56,133 nt of DNA from a virus (taxonomy: Duplodnaviria; Caudoviricetes): positions 1 to 56,133 of the IMG/VR virus record IMGVR_UViG_3300024232_000014. The stretch is one strand, 5' to 3'. This document shows, in pieces, positions 2,157 through 32,018 of this stretch; positions within the stretch are counted from its first letter, which is position 1; every line of letters starts with the position of its first letter. Below the pieces are notes generated by a model. That model had not been told where the DNA came from, searched no databases, and worked only from the letters and a program-made list of their open reading frames with translations. Made by a program: the position numbers and the translations under genes.

Positions 2157-5047
2157 GCCGGCGCTCCCACGTAGCCCTGCATCTTGGCGACCTGGAGCTG
2201 GTAGTGAAGCTCGGAGAACGCCTGCGCGAGCGTCAGTCCCTCGGGCTGCATGATGTAGATGTTATTGGCGAGCTGGGACACGCCGCCCTGGCCGCTGCTG
2301 CTGCCGAACGGCGTGTTGCCTCCGCCGCTGGTCGGCACCACCCACTCCGGCTCCTTCTCCGCCAGGGTGTACATCTGGCCGGTCCTGGTGCCGTAGCCGA
2401 TAACCGGCTCGGACAGCAGGCCGCCCTTCGCCAGCCCGATGGCGTGCAGCGCCCCGCCGAGGAAGTGGCCGACGGCCGACCCGCCGGGAATGCTGTTCTC
2501 CAGGCCGCTGATCAGGGAGCCGATGGCGTTCTTGGCCAGGTTGTACAGGGCATCCGCCAGCCCGGACAGGGCATTGATGATCTTGCCCGGCAGCGACTCG
2601 AACCAGTCGACGACATCGAACAGGGCGTTGTGCAGCGGCTCGAAGAAATGCGACTCCAGCCAGTTCCACGCGGCGGAACCGGCCTTTGCCACGTCGGTGA
2701 TGATGGTCCGCCAGTGCTGGGCGAACTCGATTGCGCCGAGTGCCAGCAAGCCCGCCGGTCCGAGGAATACCAGGGCGAACTTGAAGTATTTAGTGACGAA
2801 TCCGACGACATCCCCGGTGATTCGCTTGATGGCTCCCCAGGTGACGTCCCAGGCTTTCTTGACCGCATTCAGCGAGTCAACGAAAGCGACCTTCAGATAG
2901 TGACCGATAGGGTCGAACACGTCATTCTTGAGGAAATTCCAGGTCGCTCCTGCTACTTCCTTGATGAACTTCCAGACGGTTCCCCAGTGCTTGACCAGCT
3001 CGACGATGGCGACAACGAGCAGCGCCACCGCAGCGATTACCAGGCCTATCGGGTTGGCTAGCAGCTCAGCGTCGAGAATTGCCTGGACGACTGCCCAGGC
3101 CTTGATTCCGAGGACGATTGCCCCGATTGCCAGGGCTATTGCCGTCAGCACAGGTGCAGGGATGGCGTCGATTATTGCCGTCAGTGCCGTGGCGATGTCA
3201 GTGATCAGGTGCACGACAACAGGGGTGAACAGCCCGAGGAGGGTCGAAAGAATCGGCACCACTGCTGGCAAGACGGCACTCAGGGCAGGAAGGATGGCCA
3301 TTGCCAGCTTGGTCAGCGGCGGGATGAGCTGGGTAATTGCCTGGATTACCGCGCCGGTGAAGGCGTTGAGGAACTGCTCGACGAATGGGATGAGCTGGGG
3401 CAGGATCTTGGCCAGCTCGCGCAGCACGCTCTCCACGAGCTTCGCCAGGGGCGGCAGTAGCTGGCTGACCAGGGCGATGCCGACCTTGGAGAAGATGAAC
3501 ACGATCTGGGAGAACAGGTCGATGACCGGCGGCAGCACGGGCAGCAGGATGCCGACCACGGTGTTGATGAAGGATGCCAGCGGCTTGGCGACCGCCTCGA
3601 TGATGTCGGCGATCTGGGCGAATACGCCCTTGTTCTCCAGCACGGTGAAGACCTGGCCGAACGCGTCGGCGAGCTTGACCAGGGACGGCGAGATGGCGTT
3701 CAGGAGCTGCGCCACGGGTGCCAGCGCGGAGATCAGGTCACCGAGGACGGCACCCGCGAACTCGGCGAAGATCTTGCCTACGACGGCGAGCACCGGCTCC
3801 AGGGACTTGATGATGGAAGCCAGGAGCTTGAAGGCAGGCGCGAGCGCGACCGCCAGTCCCGAGGCAAGGTCGCCGATGATCGGCAGTAGTCCTGTGACTA
3901 CTTTAAGTAGTGCCCCGAGGACAGTCGACGCCGGGCCTATGACCTTGGAGAACGCAGAAAACATCTCTGACAGGCCGGTGCCGATATCGCCCAGGAAGCT
4001 CTTGAATACGGCGAACGCCGGGGCAGCCGCCTTCAGGATCATCGTCAGGCCGGGCAGCAGGTTCTTGACCAGCATCTCCAGTCCGTCGACCAGCGGCTTG
4101 AGCAGCGGCGCGGCAGCGGAGAACACGGACTTGAGCTGGGGCCCTATGCCCGAGAAGAACTTGGGTATCTGGGCGAATACCTGCTGTAGCGGCTTGAGCA
4201 GCGGCTGGGCGGCTGCGGTGAATGTGCTCTCCAGGCTGGACAACATGGACTTGGCTTGTGCCTGGAGCTGGGCGTTGCTCTTGATGAGCAGGGCCGCGCC
4301 GCCGCCGAGCACGCCAGCGCCCGCGCCGATAGCGCCGAGCGCGGGAATGCCGCCGAGTGCCGCGCCGCCGAGGCCGAGGAGCGAGGCCCACTTGGCGTTC
4401 AGCCCGAGGATGCCCGGCGCGGCTGCGTTAAAGAGCTTGCCGCCGACTCCGCCGCCCCCTGGGCCGCCCCCGCCGGGCGGCAGGACGTCTCCGCCGCCGC
4501 CGCCTCCCTTGGTGCGGCGGAAGGAGAAGAACTTGCTCCAGAAGCCGCCTCCGCTGCGCGCAGCCTGGTCGTCGGCTCCCTGCTCGGCTGCCTGCGCTGC
4601 CTGCGCGCCCTTCTCCTTGGCGGTGGTCTTGTCGACGCCGAGCACAGAGTCGACAATCGTGTCCTGCTGCCTGGTCCTGACCGTCCGGGTGACCGGCGCG
4701 TTGATCATGCGCCCGAGCTGGCCCTGGGTGCCGGACTGGAGCGCGGTCGGCGAGCCGGTGACCGGGTGCGGGCTGAACAGCGCGTTCAGGGTGCCGAGGA
4801 CCGAGCCCTGCGGCGAGGACCGCAGCCGGTTCGCCGCGTCGCGCGAGAGCTGGTTGTCGAGCTGGGCGAACAGCGTGCGCGCCCGCCCGATCACCGACCC
4901 CTCGAACGCGGCGGTGATCTTGACCTTGTGCGGCTTGCGCTCGAAGTCCTCTACGCGCGCCTCGATGCGGTCCAGGTCCCTCTCGGCCTGGTCGAGCTTG
5001 ATGACGAGCCGCGCCTCGATCGCCCCTGCATCGAACACGGCCCGCAC
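2153..5047 (-). CDS. tape measure protein
   Basis: 964 aa, Ala/Leu/Gly-rich amphipathic repeats, ANPIGLVIAAVALLV..LVKHW motif, C-terminal LAKGG...AEKEPEWVVP; follows chaperone genes. Confidence 0.93.
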   Translation of the reverse strand: MRAVFDAGAIEARLVIKLDQAERDLDRIEARVEDFERKPHKVKITAAFEGSVIGRARTLFAQLDNQLSRDAANRLRSSPQGSVLGTLNALFSPHPVTGSPTALQSGTQGQLGRMINAPVTRTVRTRQQDTIVDSVLGVDKTTAKEKGAQAAQAAEQGADDQAARSGGGFWSKFFSFRRTKGGGGGGDVLPPGGGGPGGGGVGGKLFNAAAPGILGLNAKWASLLGLGGAALGGIPALGAIGAGAGVLGGGAALLIKSNAQLQAQAKSMLSSLESTFTAAAQPLLKPLQQVFAQIPKFFSGIGPQLKSVFSAAAPLLKPLVDGLEMLVKNLLPGLTMILKAAAPAFAVFKSFLGDIGTGLSEMFSAFSKVIGPASTVLGALLKVVTGLLPIIGDLASGLAVALAPAFKLLASIIKSLEPVLAVVGKIFAEFAGAVLGDLISALAPVAQLLNAISPSLVKLADAFGQVFTVLENKGVFAQIADIIEAVAKPLASFINTVVGILLPVLPPVIDLFSQIVFIFSKVGIALVSQLLPPLAKLVESVLRELAKILPQLIPFVEQFLNAFTGAVIQAITQLIPPLTKLAMAILPALSAVLPAVVPILSTLLGLFTPVVVHLITDIATALTAIIDAIPAPVLTAIALAIGAIVLGIKAWAVVQAILDAELLANPIGLVIAAVALLVVAIVELVKHWGTVWKFIKEVAGATWNFLKNDVFDPIGHYLKVAFVDSLNAVKKAWDVTWGAIKRITGDVVGFVTKYFKFALVFLGPAGLLALGAIEFAQHWRTIITDVAKAGSAAWNWLESHFFEPLHNALFDVVDWFESLPGKIINALSGLADALYNLAKNAIGSLISGLENSIPGGSAVGHFLGGALHAIGLAKGGLLSEPVIGYGTRTGQMYTLAEKEPEWVVPTSGGGNTPFGSSSGQGGVSQLANNIYIMQPEGLTLAQAFSELHYQLQVAKMQGYVGAPA

Positions 5048-7257: not shown

Positions 7258-7686
7258 TCAGGCTCCTGTCTGGGAAATGATCATGTACGTGCAGGTGAAA
7301 TCGGTACGGCGGTCGGACGGGTCGAGCGGCATCGCGATCGGCGGGGAGCCGGGGCGGTAGACAAGCTGGATGTTAACGCCATCCACGTTCAGCGGGTAGC
7401 TCGCGTTCAGGATCATCACGTCGAGCTGCTGTGCCGCCAGCTCCGGGGAGAGCGAGTCGTCCGAGGGACCGCGCAGCCGCGACTGGAAGCCCCAGGCATC
7501 GAGCCCGGCCTCCTCGGTGATGAAGCCGGGTCCGGTGGTGGGCGTGAGGGTGATGAGCTTGTCAGGCGACTCGATGATCTCCGGTCCGGGAGACAGGACG
7601 TAGCCGGTCTCCTCGGTGTCGTCCCAGCCGATAACCCGCAGGAAGTCGATCAGCAGCTTGGTCTTGGGTACCGTGGGCAGGCTCAC
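7258..7686 (-). CDS. tail terminator-like protein
   Basis: 142 aa; PDKLITLT...GPG, FQSRLRG, D..DRR..F.C.Y pattern; synteny. Confidence 0.65.
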   Translation of the reverse strand: MSLPTVPKTKLLIDFLRVIGWDDTEETGYVLSPGPEIIESPDKLITLTPTTGPGFITEEAGLDAWGFQSRLRGPSDDSLSPELAAQQLDVMILNASYPLNVDGVNIQLVYRPGSPPIAMPLDPSDRRTDFTCTYMIISQTGA

Positions 7687-8213
7687 CGGCCCCTCCTCGG
7701 CGGAGGCTCAGTGTGGTGCTGCACGTGCCACCAGATCCAGCCCTTGAGCCGGTCCGGGAGGTCCAGGTACCTGATCCGCGACTTGATGCGCAGCTCTTCC
7801 TCGGTCAGCCGGTGCTGTTTCGGCTCGCGGTCGCGCAGGACCTCGCCGCCGGTGCCGTCGCCCAGGTAGCCGCCTGCGTGCACGGACGGGTGCCCGCTGC
7901 GCCGCAGGTCGGAGAACTCGACTGGGGCCAGCACTTCTACCTGGTCGGACAGGTGCTCGGCGTCGTCCATCAGCGCGCCCACGCCGCCATCGTGCAGGAC
8001 CGCCCTGGCGTACCTCTCGATGTAGTCGCGGTAGTGCCGGTTGAGCCCGTCCTCCAGGAACTTGGCCTGGCCGCCGCGCGGGTGCCTGAAGTGCAGGCCC
8101 TCGTGCTGGTAGTGGGCGTACACCTGGTCGACGACCACCGACGCCGTGAGCTTGCCGTCGCGCATGTGCGTCATGCGCCGCAGCTCGGCGAGGCGCTCGG
8201 AGAAGCTGCCCAC
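7683..8213 (-). CDS. neck / tail-completion protein (HK97 gp10-like)
   Basis: GTG at 8213; YAHYQHE..HF.HP.GGQAKFLE and APVE..DLRRSG motifs. Confidence 0.65.
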   Translation of the reverse strand: MGSFSERLAELRRMTHMRDGKLTASVVVDQVYAHYQHEGLHFRHPRGGQAKFLEDGLNRHYRDYIERYARAVLHDGGVGALMDDAEHLSDQVEVLAPVEFSDLRRSGHPSVHAGGYLGDGTGGEVLRDREPKQHRLTEEELRIKSRIRYLDLPDRLKGWIWWHVQHHTEPPPRRGR

Positions 8214-25988: not shown

Positions 25989-27749
25989 CTAGCGCCAGGA
26001 ATGCACTGCCGCCCGGCTAGGACGAACGTCTTCTCTTTCATCAGCAACAGACTGCGGCGCAAACCCGTCCGTGCTCCAGTCGCCTCCAGCCTGGTTGAGC
26101 GGCCCGCCGGAGGCTTCCTCCAGCCGCCGCGCCATGCGCGAGTCGTGGCTGTCCTCGGGCATCTCGAAGCCGATCCTGCCTCCGGCCGCGTCCAGGATGT
26201 CCCCGCTGTCCAGAGCGTAGTCGTACGACCTGGCTGCCTCTGGCTCGCGGCCGGACAGGTACAGGAACTTGGTCATGCCCCAGACCAGGGAGTCGAGCCG
26301 GTCCGGCGAGCGCTCCTTGGCCGCGCCGGTGAACGTGCACATCTGGTCTTCCAGCTCGACCATCGACTCGACCGCCAGCTCGCCGAACGCGTCCTTGGCC
26401 AGCATCTTGCAGTGCTTGACCTTGTTGCGCTGGTAGAGCGCGGCTACCGGCTCGGCGCGCGTCCGCTTGTTCTGGCTGGACCAGACCTCTTCGACGTACG
26501 GCACCCGGCCGGGCGGCATGACCGGCTCGAACTTGCGGCACTCACACTCCTCGTCGCGGCAGCGCCCTGCCTTGGCGTGCTCGTGCGCGCAGTTCGCGCA
26601 CTCAGCTTGCAACTCCTTGATCACCTGGTGGAACATGGCGACCATCCACTTGCCGCCGTGGTTGCGCTCGACGACGATCCGCGCCTCCCACTCGATCGCC
26701 TTCAGCACGACGCGGCGCGCGAACAGCGGCGGGGACTCCTGGCCGCCCCAGTTCTCGGCGACATACACGGTGTCATCGCCGCCGAAGCCGAGGCCCATGA
26801 TGGTGTAGGCCTGCTCGTCGCTGTTCTCCGAGCCGTCGGACGGGTCGACGCCGATGACCGCGTTCCGCAGGTAGGCCTCGCCCTCGGGCCCGCTGATCAC
26901 CGGCACCTGGATGCGCTCGATCAGCTCGCGCGTCCACAGCGAGTTGGGCACGTCGTCGAGCAGCACGCCTTCCAGCTCCTGCTGCTCCAGTCTCGTGCCC
27001 TTGTTCGCGCCGATGACAGCCCTGTAGAAGGCCTCAGACAGGTGCTTGCGGTTGTCGACGGTCCGCAGCCGCCGCACGATCACGCCGCCGTGCTGCGGCT
27101 CGTCGCGGACCAGGGAGCGGACCAGCTTGGCGGCCGGGCGGGCAGCCTTGGGCGTCCCGGTTGCGATGATCACCGACGCGCCCATACGGACCGCGTACCG
27201 CAGCGACTCGTTCCAGGTAGTGTCCCACTTGTCCCAGAGCCCTACCTCGTCGCACCAGGCAGCCTTCAGGTTGCGGCCCTGGATGCGCAGGCCGCCTTCT
27301 GCGGCCGAGTCGGCGTAGATGATGATGCCGTTGTGCAGGACCACCTGGCCGTACGTCCGCCAGGCACTGCGCACCGTCTTGGAGCGGTGGTCCTTGATCT
27401 CGGCCATCGAGGTGCCGAGCGCCCGCAGGATGCCGCTCTCGCCCTCCACGCACTTGGTCCAGGCGTCGGCGTAGGTGGGCGCGATGATGCCGTACTCGCC
27501 CTCGCCGTCGGTGTCAGCCAGCACGAGGTCCGCTAGCCCCTGCGCGCCTGCCCTGGTCTTCCCGCTGCCACGGCCGCCGGACAGGTAGAGCACCCGCCAG
27601 GTGTTGTCTCTCTCGGGCAGGAGCTGCTCGGGCCTGGCAGTCTGACGCCAGCGCAGCCGGGGGTCCTCCGGAGCGCTGGCGTACCTCGTGCCTACCAGGC
27701 CGAGCGCCGCCACGTCGGAGTGGTGCGCCCCGATGGCGGTAATGCTCAT
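25989..27749 (-). CDS. terL: terminase large subunit
   Basis: Walker A GGRGSGKT, Walker B AWCDE, TGTP, QELEG, nuclease VIGVDP, K..RAEPVAALY, SPDRLDSLVW. Confidence 0.95.
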   Translation of the reverse strand: MSITAIGAHHSDVAALGLVGTRYASAPEDPRLRWRQTARPEQLLPERDNTWRVLYLSGGRGSGKTRAGAQGLADLVLADTDGEGEYGIIAPTYADAWTKCVEGESGILRALGTSMAEIKDHRSKTVRSAWRTYGQVVLHNGIIIYADSAAEGGLRIQGRNLKAAWCDEVGLWDKWDTTWNESLRYAVRMGASVIIATGTPKAARPAAKLVRSLVRDEPQHGGVIVRRLRTVDNRKHLSEAFYRAVIGANKGTRLEQQELEGVLLDDVPNSLWTRELIERIQVPVISGPEGEAYLRNAVIGVDPSDGSENSDEQAYTIMGLGFGGDDTVYVAENWGGQESPPLFARRVVLKAIEWEARIVVERNHGGKWMVAMFHQVIKELQAECANCAHEHAKAGRCRDEECECRKFEPVMPPGRVPYVEEVWSSQNKRTRAEPVAALYQRNKVKHCKMLAKDAFGELAVESMVELEDQMCTFTGAAKERSPDRLDSLVWGMTKFLYLSGREPEAARSYDYALDSGDILDAAGGRIGFEMPEDSHDSRMARRLEEASGGPLNQAGGDWSTDGFAPQSVADEREDVRPSRAAVHSWR

Positions 27750-27753
27750 CGCG

Positions 27754-28014
27754 CTACAGGACCGTCCAGTCGTCCGACAGGAGGTCGATCTGCGCCGCGA
27801 GCCACGGCATGCAGGTGCCGTCGGCGAGCTTCATGTCGATGTGCGGCCGGTAATTGATCTCGGTGCCCGGCTCGTAGATGCCGAGCAGTGGCGGCCGGTT
27901 GACCTTGAACGTGCTGCCGGGCACCAGGTAGAGGAACATCCCCTTGCCGTTCCACCCGCTGCGGCAGACGCGCCCGCCGTTCTTGAGCGCTTCGAGCGCC
28001 TGTCCGAAGTCCAT
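27754..28014 (-). CDS. tad2: DUF2829 family protein, Tad2-like anti-defence sponge
   Basis: MDFGQALEALK.G.RV.R.GWNGKGMFL...PW..Q.DLL.DDW is the DUF2829 signature. Confidence 0.8.
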   Translation of the reverse strand: MDFGQALEALKNGGRVCRSGWNGKGMFLYLVPGSTFKVNRPPLLGIYEPGTEINYRPHIDMKLADGTCMPWLAAQIDLLSDDWTVL

Positions 28015-28023
28015 GACCTGCTC

Positions 28024-28758
28024 CTATGCGACGATCCGTAGGTGGCGGGACAGCGCCTCGCGCGCCGCCTGCTTGCGTTCGAGCGGGATGCCGGATTCCT
28101 CCAGCGCCGCGTCGAGAGCGCGTTCCAGCATGTCGGCGGTCTGCTGGCGAATGCCTGCCAGCCGCTCGTCGATCTTGAGCTTGCTGATGTCGATGAGGAT
28201 CTTCGCGAACCGCTCCATGGCGCGCTCGTAGAGCAGCATCTCGGCGCGGATCTGCTCGCCCGCCTTGCCGCTGTAGCGCATGCGCCCGAGGCCGACCAGC
28301 TCGGCGACCATGCCGCGCATGACCTCCTTGAACGCCTTGACCTCGCCCGCCAGCTCCATCAGCTCGTCCAGCGGGTTGCCGATGTCGTCGGGATTCAGGA
28401 GCTTTTCGCCGTTGGCCCGCATGATCTCGGCCAGGCGCTCGGCCATCCCGTTCTCGATGGCGTTCGTCGCGGCAGCCTGCCGGGCCCAGGGAGCCGACCC
28501 GCCGTGCGTGGTGCACCTTGGCGGGTCGCTGCCGTCCAGGGCCAGGTTGCGGCACTTGCCTGTCTGCTTGCCCTTGCAGAGCCTGATCCCGGTCAGCTCC
28601 TCGGCTTCCTCCAGGTCCTCGTCGCTCACGTGCCGCAGGCACGCGGCCAGGCCGTGGATCTCGCGCTCCTGGCACGGGTCGCCGGTGCGCGTCGGCTGGC
28701 CGCAGGGGTTGGGGCCCTCCCAGGGACGCGGCGCTCGGCTGAAGTGGTCGTACGTCAC
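28024..28758 (-). CDS. terS: terminase small subunit
   Basis: GTG at 28758 (GTGA overlap); CG..TR.G.PC and C..HGG Zn motifs, then helical C-terminus; upstream of terL. Confidence 0.7.
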   Translation of the reverse strand: MTYDHFSRAPRPWEGPNPCGQPTRTGDPCQEREIHGLAACLRHVSDEDLEEAEELTGIRLCKGKQTGKCRNLALDGSDPPRCTTHGGSAPWARQAAATNAIENGMAERLAEIMRANGEKLLNPDDIGNPLDELMELAGEVKAFKEVMRGMVAELVGLGRMRYSGKAGEQIRAEMLLYERAMERFAKILIDISKLKIDERLAGIRQQTADMLERALDAALEESGIPLERKQAAREALSRHLRIVA

Positions 28759-29054
28759 TGGCTTCCCCCGCTCTTGTCGATGTGGTCGGCTGTCAGCCCG
28801 GTGGTGAAGAACGCGAAGACCGAGGCGAACAGCGGGACGATCGTTACCATCATCATCGTCGACAGCAGGTACGCAAGCCAGCCGTGCGGCGCGATATCGC
28901 AGCCTACGGTAGTCGCCGTCCCGGTGGCGCAGTAGATGCCGTGCCCTATTCCGATGCCGTTGACGGAGCCGTACCCGACGCCGAGCGCCAGGTCGAGCAC
29001 GATGGTCGTCCCGAGCACGAACGCAGCGCGGCGGTGGTGCACGTTGACCCTCAT
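28755..29054 (-). CDS. miniature two-TM potassium-channel-family protein with variant filter
   Basis: ATG at 29054 (ATGA overlap), 99 aa; TM1 - GIYCATGTATTVGCDIAP - TM2 aligns to KcsA ALWWSVETATTVGYGDLYP. Confidence 0.75.
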   Translation of the reverse strand: MRVNVHHRRAAFVLGTTIVLDLALGVGYGSVNGIGIGHGIYCATGTATTVGCDIAPHGWLAYLLSTMMMVTIVPLFASVFAFFTTGLTADHIDKSGGSQ

Positions 29055-29404
29055 GACCGCTGCTCCAGCAGCTCGATGACACGTTCCAGCAGCTCGGTGA
29101 CGGACTTCTCCGGCCGCGCCTGCGCCTCGTGCCTGCTGCACCATGGCGTGCCGTTGATGACGTGCTTGCCGATCCGCCAGCAGCGGCTCTTGTGGCAGTT
29201 CTTCAGGTGGTAGAGGGACCAGACCGACCCGAGGAGGGTCAGCACGGTCAGTGCCGGGATGAACCCGGATTCGAGCTGGTAGGTCCAGGGCGTGCCTGAC
29301 GGCACCGGCCAGGTGCCCATGGCGAAGCGCCAGGCCAGCGGGTGGTGCGCAACCGACCACCCGACTGCGCCTAGCAGCAGTAGCGGGAGGAACAGGCGTC
29401 TCAT
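29051..29404 (-). CDS. membrane protein with C-terminal Cys/His cluster
   Basis: ATG at 29404; two hydrophobic segments; NCH..RCWR.G......WC..H. Confidence 0.65.
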   Translation of the reverse strand: MRRLFLPLLLLGAVGWSVAHHPLAWRFAMGTWPVPSGTPWTYQLESGFIPALTVLTLLGSVWSLYHLKNCHKSRCWRIGKHVINGTPWCSRHEAQARPEKSVTELLERVIELLEQRS

Positions 29405-29428
29405 GGGCCTATTGTGCCACGCAAAGCA

Positions 29429-29459
29429 AGAGGCAGGCACCGGGGCGATGCCTGCCTCT
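29429..29459 (-). terminator. hairpin, probable terminator
   Basis: AGAGGCAGGCA / TGCCTGCCTCT 11-bp inverted repeat followed by TGCTTT on minus strand. Confidence 0.55.
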
Positions 29460-29572
29460 GCCCGACCGGGCCTACTCTGCGTTGTGTGCCCGGTCTCATC
29501 CGTACAGGCCGGTCCTGGAGACCACGGCTGCCTACGGGGGCGGGCAGCCTGGTCGCGGCCTGACGGGCTAAA

Positions 29573-30421
29573 TTAGCTGGTTTTCGTGAACGTCCAGGTT
29601 ACGTCAACGTCGTAGTAGTCGCTAGCCGGGACGGTGATCTCGGTTGCGGTGCCGCCAGCCGGGTAAGCCTGCGAGCTGCCGCAGTCCAGCGTGCCGCCGA
29701 TGCCGAGCGTGACCGCCGTCGCGGAGGTCCCGAGCGGTGCTGAGGAGCCGTTGTTGTCCGCGCCGTCCCCGTACTCGCAGTAGGCCATCGAGCCGTCGGC
29801 GAGCTGCTTGTGGATGAGCACGCGGGGGTAGGCCTGGTAGCCGGTGACGGTCGCGTACGCCTGGACGCTGACCTGGCAGTCGGTGGTCTTGCAAGTGAAG
29901 CGGAACGACCCGCCGGTGGTGTCTCCGACGGGGGAGCCGAGCGTGGTGCTCAGCGTCTGCCAGACGGCTGCCCCGCTGCCACGGTCGACGAGCACCTGGC
30001 CGATGCCGTACGGAAGAGCCTGGGCGTTAGTGCCCGCAGGCCCGGTGTCCCCCTTCGGTCCCTGCGGCCCGGTCGCTCCCGTGTCGCCCTTCGGCCCGGC
30101 TGCCCCGGTGTCGCCCTTGGGACCCTGCGCACCGTCAGCTCCGGTCGCGCCGGTCAGCCCTGTAGCGCCGGTCAGTCCCGTGGCTCCAGTCGGGCCCGGA
30201 ACACCGCCCACGATCACGTCGTGCATGCCTGCCGGGCAGGTCTGCGCGTGCTCGGTGAGCGCGGTCTTGAGGGTGCGCGTGCTGTTCTCGCACGAGTGCA
30301 CCGCGATGCTCCGGGGAGCAGCAGTGCTGCTTGCCGCGTACGCGGCACCGGCCGTCATCACGCCCGCCGCAACGACCGAAGTCGCAACGATGGCCGCTGC
30401 CCGGCTCTTTATCTTGATCAT
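29573..30421 (-). CDS. secreted collagen-like protein
   Basis: N-terminal signal peptide ([23 protein letters not shown]), long G-X-Y run, Cys-containing C-terminal domain. Confidence 0.8.
30035..30200 (-). repeat. collagen G-X-Y repeat
   Basis: [55 protein letters not shown]. Confidence 0.9.
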
Positions 30422-30446
30422 CTTCCTGTTGCCTCTCGTTGTGCCC

Positions 30447-30707
30447 CTATGAGCAGTGTAGTGCGATGAACGCGTCTGTTCTCGACTTGATTCCCGCCAG
30501 CCACTCGTTGTCGTCGTCCGCAGCGTACACCGCCGTCTCCGGTGGCAGGTCCCCGGACGGAGCGCTGCCCGCGTCCCAGGAGTCGTCCAGGTGGCGCTCC
30601 CAGCGGCCCTTGCGCACTCCCTGCCGGTGTCCCAGCAGGTAGAAGACGATAGCGGTAGGTCCTGCCGTCATCAGGGCGACCCCGATGGCGAAAGTTGCCG
30701 TGATCAT
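30447..30707 (-). CDS. small membrane protein
   Basis: N-terminal hydrophobic helix; GGAGG RBS. Confidence 0.6.
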
Positions 30708-30719
30708 TTCGTAATCCTC

Positions 30720-31301
30720 CTAGCAGCCGTCGTACGGGGTCCAGTCGCTGTAGCCGTCGTCATGGACGGTCTGCCAGAAGACAGCCGTCTGCTCGGCCGG
30801 GCCCGCCTTGCCGAAGTCGGCCGGCGCACCGCCGTGCGCGCTCCAGGTGGACGCGCTGAACTGGTAGAGGCCCCAGTGCCCGGTCGCATTCCAGATGTAC
30901 GGGTTGCCGCCGCTCTCGCGGCTGATGATGCACTGCTGCATCACGGTCGAGCCCTGGTAGGAGATGACGTGCTGGCTAGCGAGCTGCGTGCCCGCTGCGG
31001 CTGTCGCGGGCATGGCCGCGAGCTTCTGCCGCTCCTCGGCCGCAGCCGCCAGCGCGGCAAGCCGCTTGAGGTGCGCCAGGTGGGCCAGGTGCTTGAGGTG
31101 CAGTACGTGGTTCTGCTGCCAGGTCAGCGCGGGTATCGTCTGGTAGTCAGGCTGCGTGTACGACACGTAGCGGATGACCTGCGGGTTTGCCGAGCCCGCG
31201 AAGATGAAGCCGAAGGCCAGGAGAGGCGTGCACACTGCGGTGCAAATTGCGGCGAAAGTTGCCCGGAATTTACGGGTCGCCCCATGTCGCCAGGTGAGCA
31301 T
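30720..31301 (-). CDS. Rpf-like lytic transglycosylase, membrane-anchored or secreted
   Basis: ATG at 31301 with AAGGA RBS; N-terminal TM; CI..RESGGN...GLYQF..STW...GG...A...EQ catalytic signature. Confidence 0.8.
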   Translation of the reverse strand: MLTWRHGATRKFRATFAAICTAVCTPLLAFGFIFAGSANPQVIRYVSYTQPDYQTIPALTWQQNHVLHLKHLAHLAHLKRLAALAAAAEERQKLAAMPATAAAGTQLASQHVISYQGSTVMQQCIISRESGGNPYIWNATGHWGLYQFSASTWSAHGGAPADFGKAGPAEQTAVFWQTVHDDGYSDWTPYDGC

Positions 31302-31430
31302 GTGTGTATCCTTGCTCTCGTTGATAGTTCGCCGCCTGGCGAGGGGACTGCCAGGTACCAGCCTCGCCTGCGGCACGCTTCGCCGACGATAACAGCCCGG
31401 TCTCGTCCTTGGCCACAAAATCGCCGAATG

Positions 31431-31462
31431 AGAAACCCCCGGATGGGTCTCCGGGGGTTTCT
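31431..31462. terminator. intrinsic terminator
   Basis: Perfect 13-bp inverted repeat AGAAACCCCCGGA / TCCGGGGGTTTCT with 6-nt loop, just after the 31474 stop. Confidence 0.8.
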
Positions 31463-31473
31463 TGCTGTTTCTG

Positions 31474-31749
31474 TTACTCCTGTGGCTGCACCTTGATCCG
31501 GCTGACGCGCATCGGAGCGTCCGACCAGACGGTCACCGAGTATTTCCCCCCGGTCTCCTTGACGCTCACGAGCTGCTGCCTTAGCGCTTCTGCCTCGGCT
31601 TTTGCCTCGCGCACCGCCTCGATCAGGTCCGGCACGTCGATGTTGACCAGCCGGGCGACGTCCTCGTGGTGCATCGCACGAGCGTTCTGGAGAGTCACCT
31701 TGGCCCGCTCCAGCCGCGCCGCGACCTTAGTCAGGTGAACCGCCTTCAC
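31474..31749 (-). CDS. hypothetical protein
   Basis: Overlapping start/stop chain; coiled coil. Confidence 0.6.
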   Translation of the reverse strand: MKAVHLTKVAARLERAKVTLQNARAMHHEDVARLVNIDVPDLIEAVREAKAEAEALRQQLVSVKETGGKYSVTVWSDAPMRVSRIKVQPQE

Positions 31750-32018
31750 TGCCTGCCTCCCTCCGAGAACGGCGTCCAGTTAGTGCCCCGGTCAGGGAAC
31801 ATGCCCTGGTTGTCCTGCATGAACTCGCTGATCTGCTCGTGCAGGTCCGCTAGCTCCTCCGGACTGAGCCGGATCACCACCCGGTTGCCGAGGGGCATTC
31901 CGGGGTGCCCGTGCGAGATGAAGTTCAGGCCCACCGCCTCGCCCTCGGGCGAGGGGACGGTGCCTAGCGCGTGCTCAGAGATCCGCAGCACCTCGCTGTG
32001 CTCAAACGTCCTTTCCAT
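31746..32018 (-). CDS. hypothetical protein
   Basis: Overlapping chain with RBS. Confidence 0.6.
   Translation of the reverse strand: MERTFEHSEVLRISEHALGTVPSPEGEAVGLNFISHGHPGMPLGNRVVIRLSPEELADLHEQISEFMQDNQGMFPDRGTNWTPFSEGGRQ

Follow-up and report, generated by a model that had tools for sequence, protein, structure and literature searches.

The viral record IMGVR_UViG_3300024232_000014 of IMG/VR (linear, 67% GC, CheckV completeness 63%) was analysed over its whole length of 56,133 nucleotides, called the window below. On its minus strand, at 28755-29054, it carries a gene for a 99-residue protein, P0001, whose membership of the tetrameric cation-channel superfamily is well supported: it is a KcsA/NaK-type pore-loop protein with two transmembrane (TM) helices that is encoded by a phage. 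Its selectivity filter reads TTVGC-D, one residue shorter than the TTVGYGD of canonical K+ channels, and its gene directly follows that of a small membrane protein with a Cys-Cys-Cys-His (CCCH) zinc knuckle, P0002, called the partner here. On balance we favour, with some confidence, the reading that P0001 is a functional cation channel with little K+/Na+ discrimination, which together with its partner might provide a cation leak late in infection.

The channel gene and its fold

The channel gene, the two stretches of it that bear on the filter, and the partner gene are located as follows.

29051-29404, minus strand: partner P0002, 117 amino acids, two TM helices and a CCCH zinc knuckle (translation, alignments, AlphaFold2 model with a predicted local distance difference test score, pLDDT, of 91.5)
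28755-29054, minus strand: channel P0001, 99 amino acids, TM1 at about residues 5-32, pore helix 36-47, filter loop 48-58, TM2 59-96 (translation, third-position GC content, relatives, AlphaFold2, Foldseek, profile against the PDB)
28929-28943, minus strand: codons of His38-Gly-Ile-Tyr-Cys42, where the pore helix begins (presence of both His38 and Cys42 goes with the G-C-D filter)
28887-28919, minus strand: codons of the filter stretch TATTVGCDIAP, residues 46-56, with Cys52 replacing Tyr-Gly (sequence read and conservation)

Translation of 28755-29054 gives 99 residues and a stop codon, and contains GHGIYCATGTATTVGCDIAPHGW and GIYCATGTATTVGCDIAP. Within a 201-amino-acid open reading frame (ORF) at 28755-29360, the gene makes up the 3' part. 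GC content at third codon positions (GC3) is 0.89 in the 99-residue part versus 0.51 in the same-frame 5' extension, with 0.89 in the overlapping frame of the partner, and all aligned relatives start at an equivalent Met or Val. Because of the GC3 contrast and these equivalent starts the 201-residue ORF is regarded as spurious and the 99-residue gene as real, as had been proposed in an earlier note made from the sequence of this DNA. The partner stop overlaps the channel start in ATGA (29051-29054), and the channel stop overlaps the GTG start of P0003, a protein of 244 amino acids, in GTGA (28755-28758). The earlier note had coupled the channel to an upstream membrane protein and to the small terminase gene terS. 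The two overlaps bear out the coupling, and the two predicted TM helices the membrane nature of the upstream protein; the terS label is positional only.

When 5.8 billion proteins were searched by word index, 70 of 95-141 amino acids were matched, the query included, with E values from 1e-17 to 1e-58; the relatives are 44-74% identical to P0001. Precomputed annotation places Ion_trans_2 (PF07885) in 25 of the 70, among them the TVGC-D member P0029, and a fresh Pfam scan found it at E<=0.01 in 36 (best 1.7e-15). Between P0001 and the TTVGYGD proteins that carry PF07885 there is 44-60% identity (E 1e-17 to 1e-27). When a profile of the family was run against 1.84 billion representatives, 1059 proteins matched at E<=1e-3 and 182 at E<=1e-10. 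The same profile matched 42 distinct PDB sequences at E<=0.001, the best being NaK C-DI (1.6e-07), and by name all 42 are chains of K+ or NaK-type channels except an 'Lmo2059 protein' and one 'Transporter'. PHROG matches of P0001 are weak (best E 0.016), with one 'Kef-type K+ transporter' family at E 0.035. Two longer proteins matched by the family profile, P0160 (421 amino acids) and P0197 (514 amino acids), have four pore loops per chain, TTVGYGD, STVGYGA, TTVGYGD and TTVGYGD, and would be single-chain four-pore-domain K+ channels.

The AlphaFold2 model of P0001, built from the 70-row alignment, has a pLDDT of 87.5, with helices at 5-32, 36-47 and 59-96 and a loop at 48-58. This predicted model fits the TM1, re-entrant pore helix, filter loop and TM2 fold of the superfamily. 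In Foldseek comparison with the PDB, all of the matches listed are NaK or KcsA chains (TMq 0.66-0.76, probability 1.00, best E 5e-3). The KcsA-like architecture read earlier from the sequence is thus upheld by the model, the structural matches and the profile search. P0001 would be expected to assemble as a tetramer.

The short filter and its known counterparts

The K+-channel signature T-x-G-[YF]-G-D is absent from P0001, which has T-T-V-G-C-D, one residue shorter. Both the translation and the alignments agree with the earlier reading that GYG has been replaced by G-C with a one-residue deletion. The 70 close relatives divide by filter into TVGYGD (23), VGC-D (33), [DE]GC-D (6), LGC-D (1), VGA-D (2), DGC-P (1) and xGNSx (4), so that G-C-D is present in 40. 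A wider set was made from the 70 relatives and the 150 best representatives, giving 218 sequences, or 213 after those longer than 230 amino acids were dropped. This contains 68 G-C-D, 88 G[YF]GD, 22 G-G-D and 5 G-A-D sequences, and 30 others.

The 68 G-C-D sequences are diverse: among their 2278 pairs the median identity is 0.42 and the lowest 0.20. Gly51, Cys52, Asp53 and Cys42 are nevertheless kept in 100% of them and Thr49 in 99%; for T49, G51 and D53 conservation is 98-100% in the G-C-D class as well as in the G[YF]GD class. Two residues outside the filter vary with its type. Cys42 is found in all 68 G-C-D sequences and in none of the 88 G[YF]GD sequences, which have Trp (61), Phe (24), Tyr (1) or a gap (2) at this position, and His38 is found in 66 of the 68 versus 2 of the 88. 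Cys42 is also present in 15 of the 22 G-G-D sequences. The aromatic pair of the K+-channel pore helix, which we take to be W67/W68 of KcsA, is not found in P0001, where Tyr41-Cys42 stand instead. Positions 42 and 52 presumably correspond to Trp68 and Tyr78 of KcsA, which pack together behind the filter. It is an attractive idea, drawn from this co-variation, that a Cys-Cys pair or a metal held by His and Cys could have replaced the aromatic cuff. As judged from the alignments, the G-C-D filter is a selected feature and no product of decay.

Other filters recur in the mini-channel family, including T[DE]GC-D, where an acidic residue replaces Val, TVGG-D, TAGA-D and T[ST]GNSP[YF][YF]P. Each variant recurs in several sequences, which suggests that the filter may have been retuned repeatedly. 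A FastTree tree was made from 97 columns and 210 rows, 3 rows with fewer than 70 filled columns having been dropped and the trait columns excluded; it is poorly resolved, and the filter labels are clustered on it, with 27 changes compared with 102.9 in shuffles. Both filter classes keep His6, His7, Arg9 and His91 almost without exception; these residues lie close to where TM1 and TM2 are predicted to end on the inner side. It is speculation that they sense pH or metal on the cytoplasmic side, at the gate.

The closest counterpart of this filter is man-made. NaK C-DI is an engineered form of NaK from Bacillus cereus in which DGNF has been changed to C-DI as a mimic of the GluA2 filter MQQGCDI (Minniberger et al., 10.1101/2022.08.08.502946). 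According to this preprint, the filter of NaK C-DI is one residue shorter and straightened, and the outer constriction is gone; the protein is tetrameric in crystals, with K+, Rb+ and Cs+ bound at S3 and S4, conducts K+, has a single-channel conductance of about 66 pS (picosiemens) in bilayers, and is called non-selective by its authors, who also describe the filter sequence of GluA2 as like that of no other tetrameric channel (10.1101/2022.08.08.502946).

NaK C-DI (7OOR, 7PA0, 8AYP and others) is the best PDB match of the phage family by both sequence and fold, with an E value of 0.0037 for P0001 alone. Both are two-TM pores of about 96-99 residues. Their filters are equal in length and have TTVGCDI in common, with 8 of 9 residues identical between TTVGCDISP and TTVGCDIAP (7PA0, 7OOR). 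The likeness is confined to the filter, since the overall identity is 15-20%. NaK has Phe at the position of Cys42 and is without His38, and we know of no zinc-knuckle partner gene for NaK. By its filter sequence, the phage family appears to be the natural counterpart of this engineered construct.

KcsA, Kcv-type and phage K+ channels share with P0001 the module of TM1, pore helix, filter and TM2 at a similar size, the viral ones included, and KcsA chains are matched by the family profile at E 1e-5 to 9e-4 and by fold at TMq 0.72-0.76. However, the G(Y/F)GD of canonical K+ channels is absent from P0001, as is their aromatic residue at position 42, where P0001 has Cys. The catalogued phage K+ channels include those of mycobacteriophage Myrna and Streptomyces phage BillNye (Greiner et al. 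2018, PMC6163359), and P0001 is not close to these published channels, as it matched none of 50,697 deposited phage records. The TTVGYGD relative P0054 has weak matches to ion transporters of Lactobacillus and Listeria phages in these records (36-43% identity, E 4e-6 to 3e-3).

GluA2 (...MQQGCDI...) also has G-C-D-I after its pore helix and a short filter. P0001 differs from the ionotropic glutamate receptors (iGluR) in being without their ligand-binding domains and third TM helix, in having TTV for QQ, and in its orientation, which is presumably that of K+ channels. No match of P0001 to Pfam Lig_chan (PF00060) was found at E<=10, only two TM helices are present, and Lig_chan appears among the 70 relatives once, marginally (E 0.0057). 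The likeness to the glutamate-receptor filter is probably convergent. With NaK and the cyclic nucleotide-gated (CNG) channels, P0001 shares a kept T-V-G and a remodelled outer half of the filter, so that only inner sites are expected to remain. The TVGDGN of NaK is as long as the filter of K+ channels and CNG channels have other motifs, whereas P0001 has one residue deleted and Cys fixed. P0001 thus has the sequence pattern of two-site channels, with the inner T-T-V-G kept and the outer filter shortened.

In the literature searched, 'TTVGCD' was found only in the NaK C-DI preprint (10.1101/2022.08.08.502946). The searches returned no phage channel with a TTVGC-D filter and no description of the partner, Tables S2-S4 of Greiner et al., which could bear on novelty, being outside their scope. 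P0001 can be placed in the superfamily of K+-channel-type pores but outside its K+-selective members; its short filter is fixed, and its obligatory partner belongs to no known family.

The partner and the surrounding genes

Using tblastn and ORF reading, 33 related loci (numbered with L) were collected, on 23 viral contigs, 1 contig of a metagenome-assembled genome (MAG) and 9 metagenome sequences. In every one of the 30 loci whose sequence includes the 5' end of the channel gene and the DNA before it, the next gene upstream encodes a partner homolog, a regularity that the earlier note had missed. These loci amount to about 22 distinct ones once near-identical contigs are collapsed, and the remaining 3 of the 33 are truncated within the channel gene. 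The pairing is independent of the filter, being found alike with G-C-D, GYGD, G-G-D, G-A-D and GNSP channels, and 4-nt stop/start overlaps are frequent (e.g. L001-L005, L007, L011, L017, L024).

At E<=1e-3 the partner family comprises 78 proteins, all of them without a Pfam domain. Its motif is a zinc knuckle, C70-x4-C75 ... C89-x2-H92, followed by a C-terminal helix. Cys70 and Cys75 are invariant; Cys89 and His92 are kept by all of 15 sequences and are at least 90% conserved in 73. There is also a conserved outer loop (GTPWTYQLESGF) around Tyr42, Ser46 and Gly47. The AlphaFold2 model (pLDDT 91.5) has two TM helices, a small beta-hairpin knuckle and the C-terminal helix. From the positive charge and the Zn-type ligands we infer that the knuckle is cytoplasmic. 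The partner may be an auxiliary, regulatory or gating subunit of the channel.

Searches for relatives of known type gave little. A Pfam scan found no domain in any of 15 partner members at E<=0.01, and no PDB sequence was matched significantly (best E 0.69). The best Foldseek matches of the model were at E 3.3 in the PDB and 0.37 in BFVD, and a wide VIA-align comparison with 48,161 chains gave none at Z>=5 (best Z 3.5). The sole hints are weak RING- or LIM-like zinc-finger matches over residues ~52-102, and in the Atlas only 'hypothetical protein' clusters of Uroviricota and Actinomycetota were matched. A predicted complex of four channel copies with one partner, run without controls and scored on the partner chain only, gave a score of 0.00 and a mark of 0.32, which speaks neither for nor against binding.

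In the window, the minus-strand order from 5' to 3' is Rpf-type transglycosylase, 86-residue membrane protein, collagen-repeat protein, a gap of 168 nt, partner, channel, P0003, Tad2-like gene, TerL and Mu-type portal. Those flanking the pair for which positions are given are:

30720-31418, minus strand: Rpf-type transglycosylase-like protein (PF06737, 7.4e-07)
30447-30707, minus strand: 86-amino-acid protein with an N-terminal hydrophobic stretch (ORF translation)
29573-30421, minus strand: 282-amino-acid collagen-repeat protein (PF01391, 2.4e-09)
28024-28758, minus strand: P0003, 244 amino acids, GTG start, putative small terminase by position only (translation, order before TerL)
27754-28014, minus strand: 86-amino-acid Tad2-like (DUF2829) gene between P0003 and TerL (PF11195, E 8e-25)

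TerL (PF03237, 5.7e-12; also PF17289) and the Mu-type portal (6.8e-33) lie downstream of the channel cassette. The partner is the only constant neighbour of the channel. Packaging genes (P0003-like, TerL, portal) are found downstream in 5 distinct contexts (the window, L001, L007/L029/L030, L033, L034), and a group-1 glycosyltransferase about 1 kb downstream in 7 (L002, L008, L011/12, L014, L016, L021-23, L024). The start of a gene for a glycoside hydrolase family 25 (GH25) lysozyme overlaps the channel stop in L006, the only distinct locus where such a gene is adjacent, and L016 has a second at a distance of 3.2 kb. In the window, the genes of a small membrane protein and of a muralytic Rpf-like protein are 1.4-1.7 kb upstream of the cassette, the Rpf-like one, at 1.7 kb, being the nearest muralytic gene; in L001 a homolog of this transglycosylase precedes the channel by about 1.8 kb. 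A self-contained, late-expressed cassette that is compatible with lysis timing through depolarisation fits these contexts. The scan of genome contigs, which barely samples cellular genomes and prophages, gave one locus, L024, on a 6.6 kb Acidobacteriaceae MAG contig.

Downstream of the channel, P0003 has two N-terminal Cys-x-Cys-x-Cys-x2-His motifs and a helical C-terminus. No Pfam match was found for it at E<0.01; among the PHROGs it matches phrog_3678, of unknown function, at E 9.6e-4, and its value of 0.83 to a Terminase_4 cluster in the Atlas is a lead only. Its homologs precede TerL, within about 350 nt in L001, L007, L029 and L030 and abutting it in L034. By position only, P0003 is a putative small terminase. 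Its N-terminal Cys...Cys...Cys-x2-His motifs have the same general pattern as the CCCH knuckle of the partner.

Several other features were observed around the cassette. The Tad2-like gene inside the packaging operon is a candidate sponge for Thoeris-type signalling molecules. The Rpf-type, 86-residue and collagen-repeat proteins upstream may form a lysis or cell-wall module. Between the collagen-like and partner genes, in the intergenic stretch 29405-29572 (minus strand), there is at 29427-29457 a hairpin with a perfect GC-rich stem of 11 bp and a loop of 9 nt; TGCTTTGCG comes next, and the hairpin may terminate the upstream transcript. A scan of 27600-31900 found no promoter-like site, 2 terminator-like sites on the plus strand (shuffle mean 1.7) and none on the minus strand upstream of the partner gene; its loop limit of 8 passes over the hairpin with the 9-nt loop. 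Among the viral contigs of the other loci, L011 has near the cassette (2466-4553) a gene for an NAD-dependent epimerase/dehydratase split by a LAGLIDADG intein (PF14890, 6.4e-17; PF14528, 4.3e-12), with glycosyltransferase genes nearby, and L017 has a sortase gene at 7392-8030 (PF04203, 7.4e-26) and an immunoglobulin-domain protein directly downstream of the pair.

Possible function and its alternatives

P0001 is probably a minimal pore module derived from canonical TTVGYGD mini K+ channels, of which uncultured high-GC phages have many. In the branch to which it belongs, one residue of the filter would have been lost to give TTVGC-D. The lower T-T-V sites would have been kept and the two outer K+ sites turned into a wider vestibule, as in NaK and NaK C-DI. 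With inner sites only, such a short filter would let monovalent cations pass with little K+/Na+ discrimination, and conduction of this kind is what analogy leads us to expect of P0001. The channel and the partner would be made from one translationally coupled message, and would be late genes because both head an operon that continues into the packaging genes. A controlled cation leak could then lower the host membrane potential late in infection. It is speculative that this leak times or triggers lysis, or blocks the entry of other phages.

Some results weigh against this reading. P0001 alone falls under the Ion_trans_2 gathering threshold (11.3 versus 22.5 bits, E 0.32, residues 31-85 on profile positions 20-75 of 79), so that the hidden Markov model check proposed in the earlier note succeeds with relatives and not with the protein itself. 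None of the Foldseek matches of its model in the PDB reached E<=0.001. Neither the channel nor the partner had a tblastn match among the 50,697 deposited phage records, which provide no cultured carrier. G-C-D is not a single clade on the poorly resolved FastTree tree, where it takes 12 changes, at least 4 of them forced by well-supported branches. The neighbourhood of the cassette varies between loci, and its context therefore implies no single role; the uses of depolarisation suggested in the earlier note, for superinfection exclusion, lysis timing or the countering of ion-sensing defences, are conjectures from this neighbourhood. Finally, the preprint on NaK C-DI reports that Na+ permeation was barely seen in simulations and that two-way bi-ionic currents were seen in one recording only (10.1101/2022.08.08.502946), so that the non-selectivity of TTVGCDI is not firmly measured even there.

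A quite unlikely alternative is that P0001 is still essentially K+-selective, with the T-T-V-G sites and Asp53 at the mouth being sufficient and the phage moving K+ through it as through canonical phage or chlorovirus K+ channels. A shared job is suggested by the TTVGYGD sisters, which agree with P0001 in scaffold, partner and genomic location. Work on NaK and NaK2K, however, indicates that K+ selectivity requires four contiguous sites, and P0001 is expected to retain only two. That the filter change was fixed together with two other residues suggests a new property rather than neutrality. In the preprint on NaK C-DI the S3 and S4 sites are occupied by K+, Rb+ and Cs+ and not by Na+, which hardly passed in the simulations, yet its authors call the construct non-selective (10.1101/2022.08.08.502946). 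The loss of K+ selectivity, which the earlier note had attached to filter changes of this kind, is argued for P0001 by analogy. It seems similarly improbable that His38, Cys42, Cys52 and Asp53 form a metal or redox (disulfide) site, making a metal- or redox-gated pore or a pathway for divalent or thiophilic metals. This would account for the perfect co-variation of Cys42, and the near-perfect one of His38, with G-C-D, and for the presumed alignment of positions 42 and 52 with KcsA residues that contact each other behind the filter; the T[DE]GCD variants (6 of 70), with Asp or Glu at the Val50 position, would add acidic ligands, and the partner has a CCCH site of its own as well as conserved His residues. 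However, the 15 G-G-D sequences that keep Cys42 without Cys52 indicate that Cys42 is independent of Cys52, and the small residues may merely fill the space left by the missing Tyr.

The pair could also be a device of lysis control, similar to a holin and antiholin, in which the channel fold is a scaffold and conduction is beside the point. In layout the partner resembles a class II holin, with two TM helices, both ends predicted inside (a topology inferred from charge) and a charged C-terminal tail, and lysis-type genes stand near the pair in the lysozyme overlap of L006 and in the Rpf-like and 86-residue membrane protein genes just upstream in the window. Such a device is very doubtful in view of the conservation of T49, G51 and D53 in both filter classes, as would be expected of a working pore. 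In most loci a lysis enzyme is absent beside the pair, and no holin family was found in the Pfam or PHROG scans, where the PHROGs matched by P0001 were of other kinds, at E 0.016-0.41 only. We hold it to be hardly credible that P0001 derives by decay from a K+ channel gene and has lost its function. It has lost the GYG signature and its Pfam score is under the threshold, but the frame is intact, with a high GC3, the AlphaFold2 model is confident, G-C-D is invariant across the divergent set of 68, and the translational coupling is conserved on both sides. The earlier note had regarded P0001 as a decayed copy if all its homologs were GYGD; 23 of the 70 are canonical, and the retention of G-C-D by 40 of them argues that it is not one.

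A functional channel with little K+/Na+ discrimination remains the reading that we favour. A more elaborate form of it, which we consider unlikely as a whole, is a two-component depolarising switch of high-GC phages. In this, a staple of His38, Cys42 and Cys52, as a disulfide or metal site, would replace the aromatic cuff of the tetrameric pore, and the CCCH subunit would gate the pore from the cytoplasm through zinc, redox state or pH and so set the moment of membrane collapse, and with it lysis timing or exclusion. The conserved His6, His7 and His91 at the inner gate fit the idea of cytoplasmic control by zinc, redox or pH. If this were true, the phage channels would have a natural glutamate-receptor-like short filter, intermediate between those of K+ channels and iGluR.

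The published survey of phage K+ channels retained only G(Y/F)GD proteins and set non-canonical ones aside, so that proteins such as P0001 were left out (PMC6163359). There appears to be a whole lineage of phage mini-channels with a fixed filter one residue shorter, which in the literature searched is otherwise known from an engineered mimic of an AMPA receptor. These natural, very small and easily expressed channels, with their matched TTVGYGD sisters, would provide a test system for the contributions of filter length and of the residues behind the filter to selectivity. The universal pairing of channel and zinc knuckle makes a conserved two-gene module at late-gene boundaries, and this module is a candidate for controlling the membrane potential of the host in lysis or exclusion.

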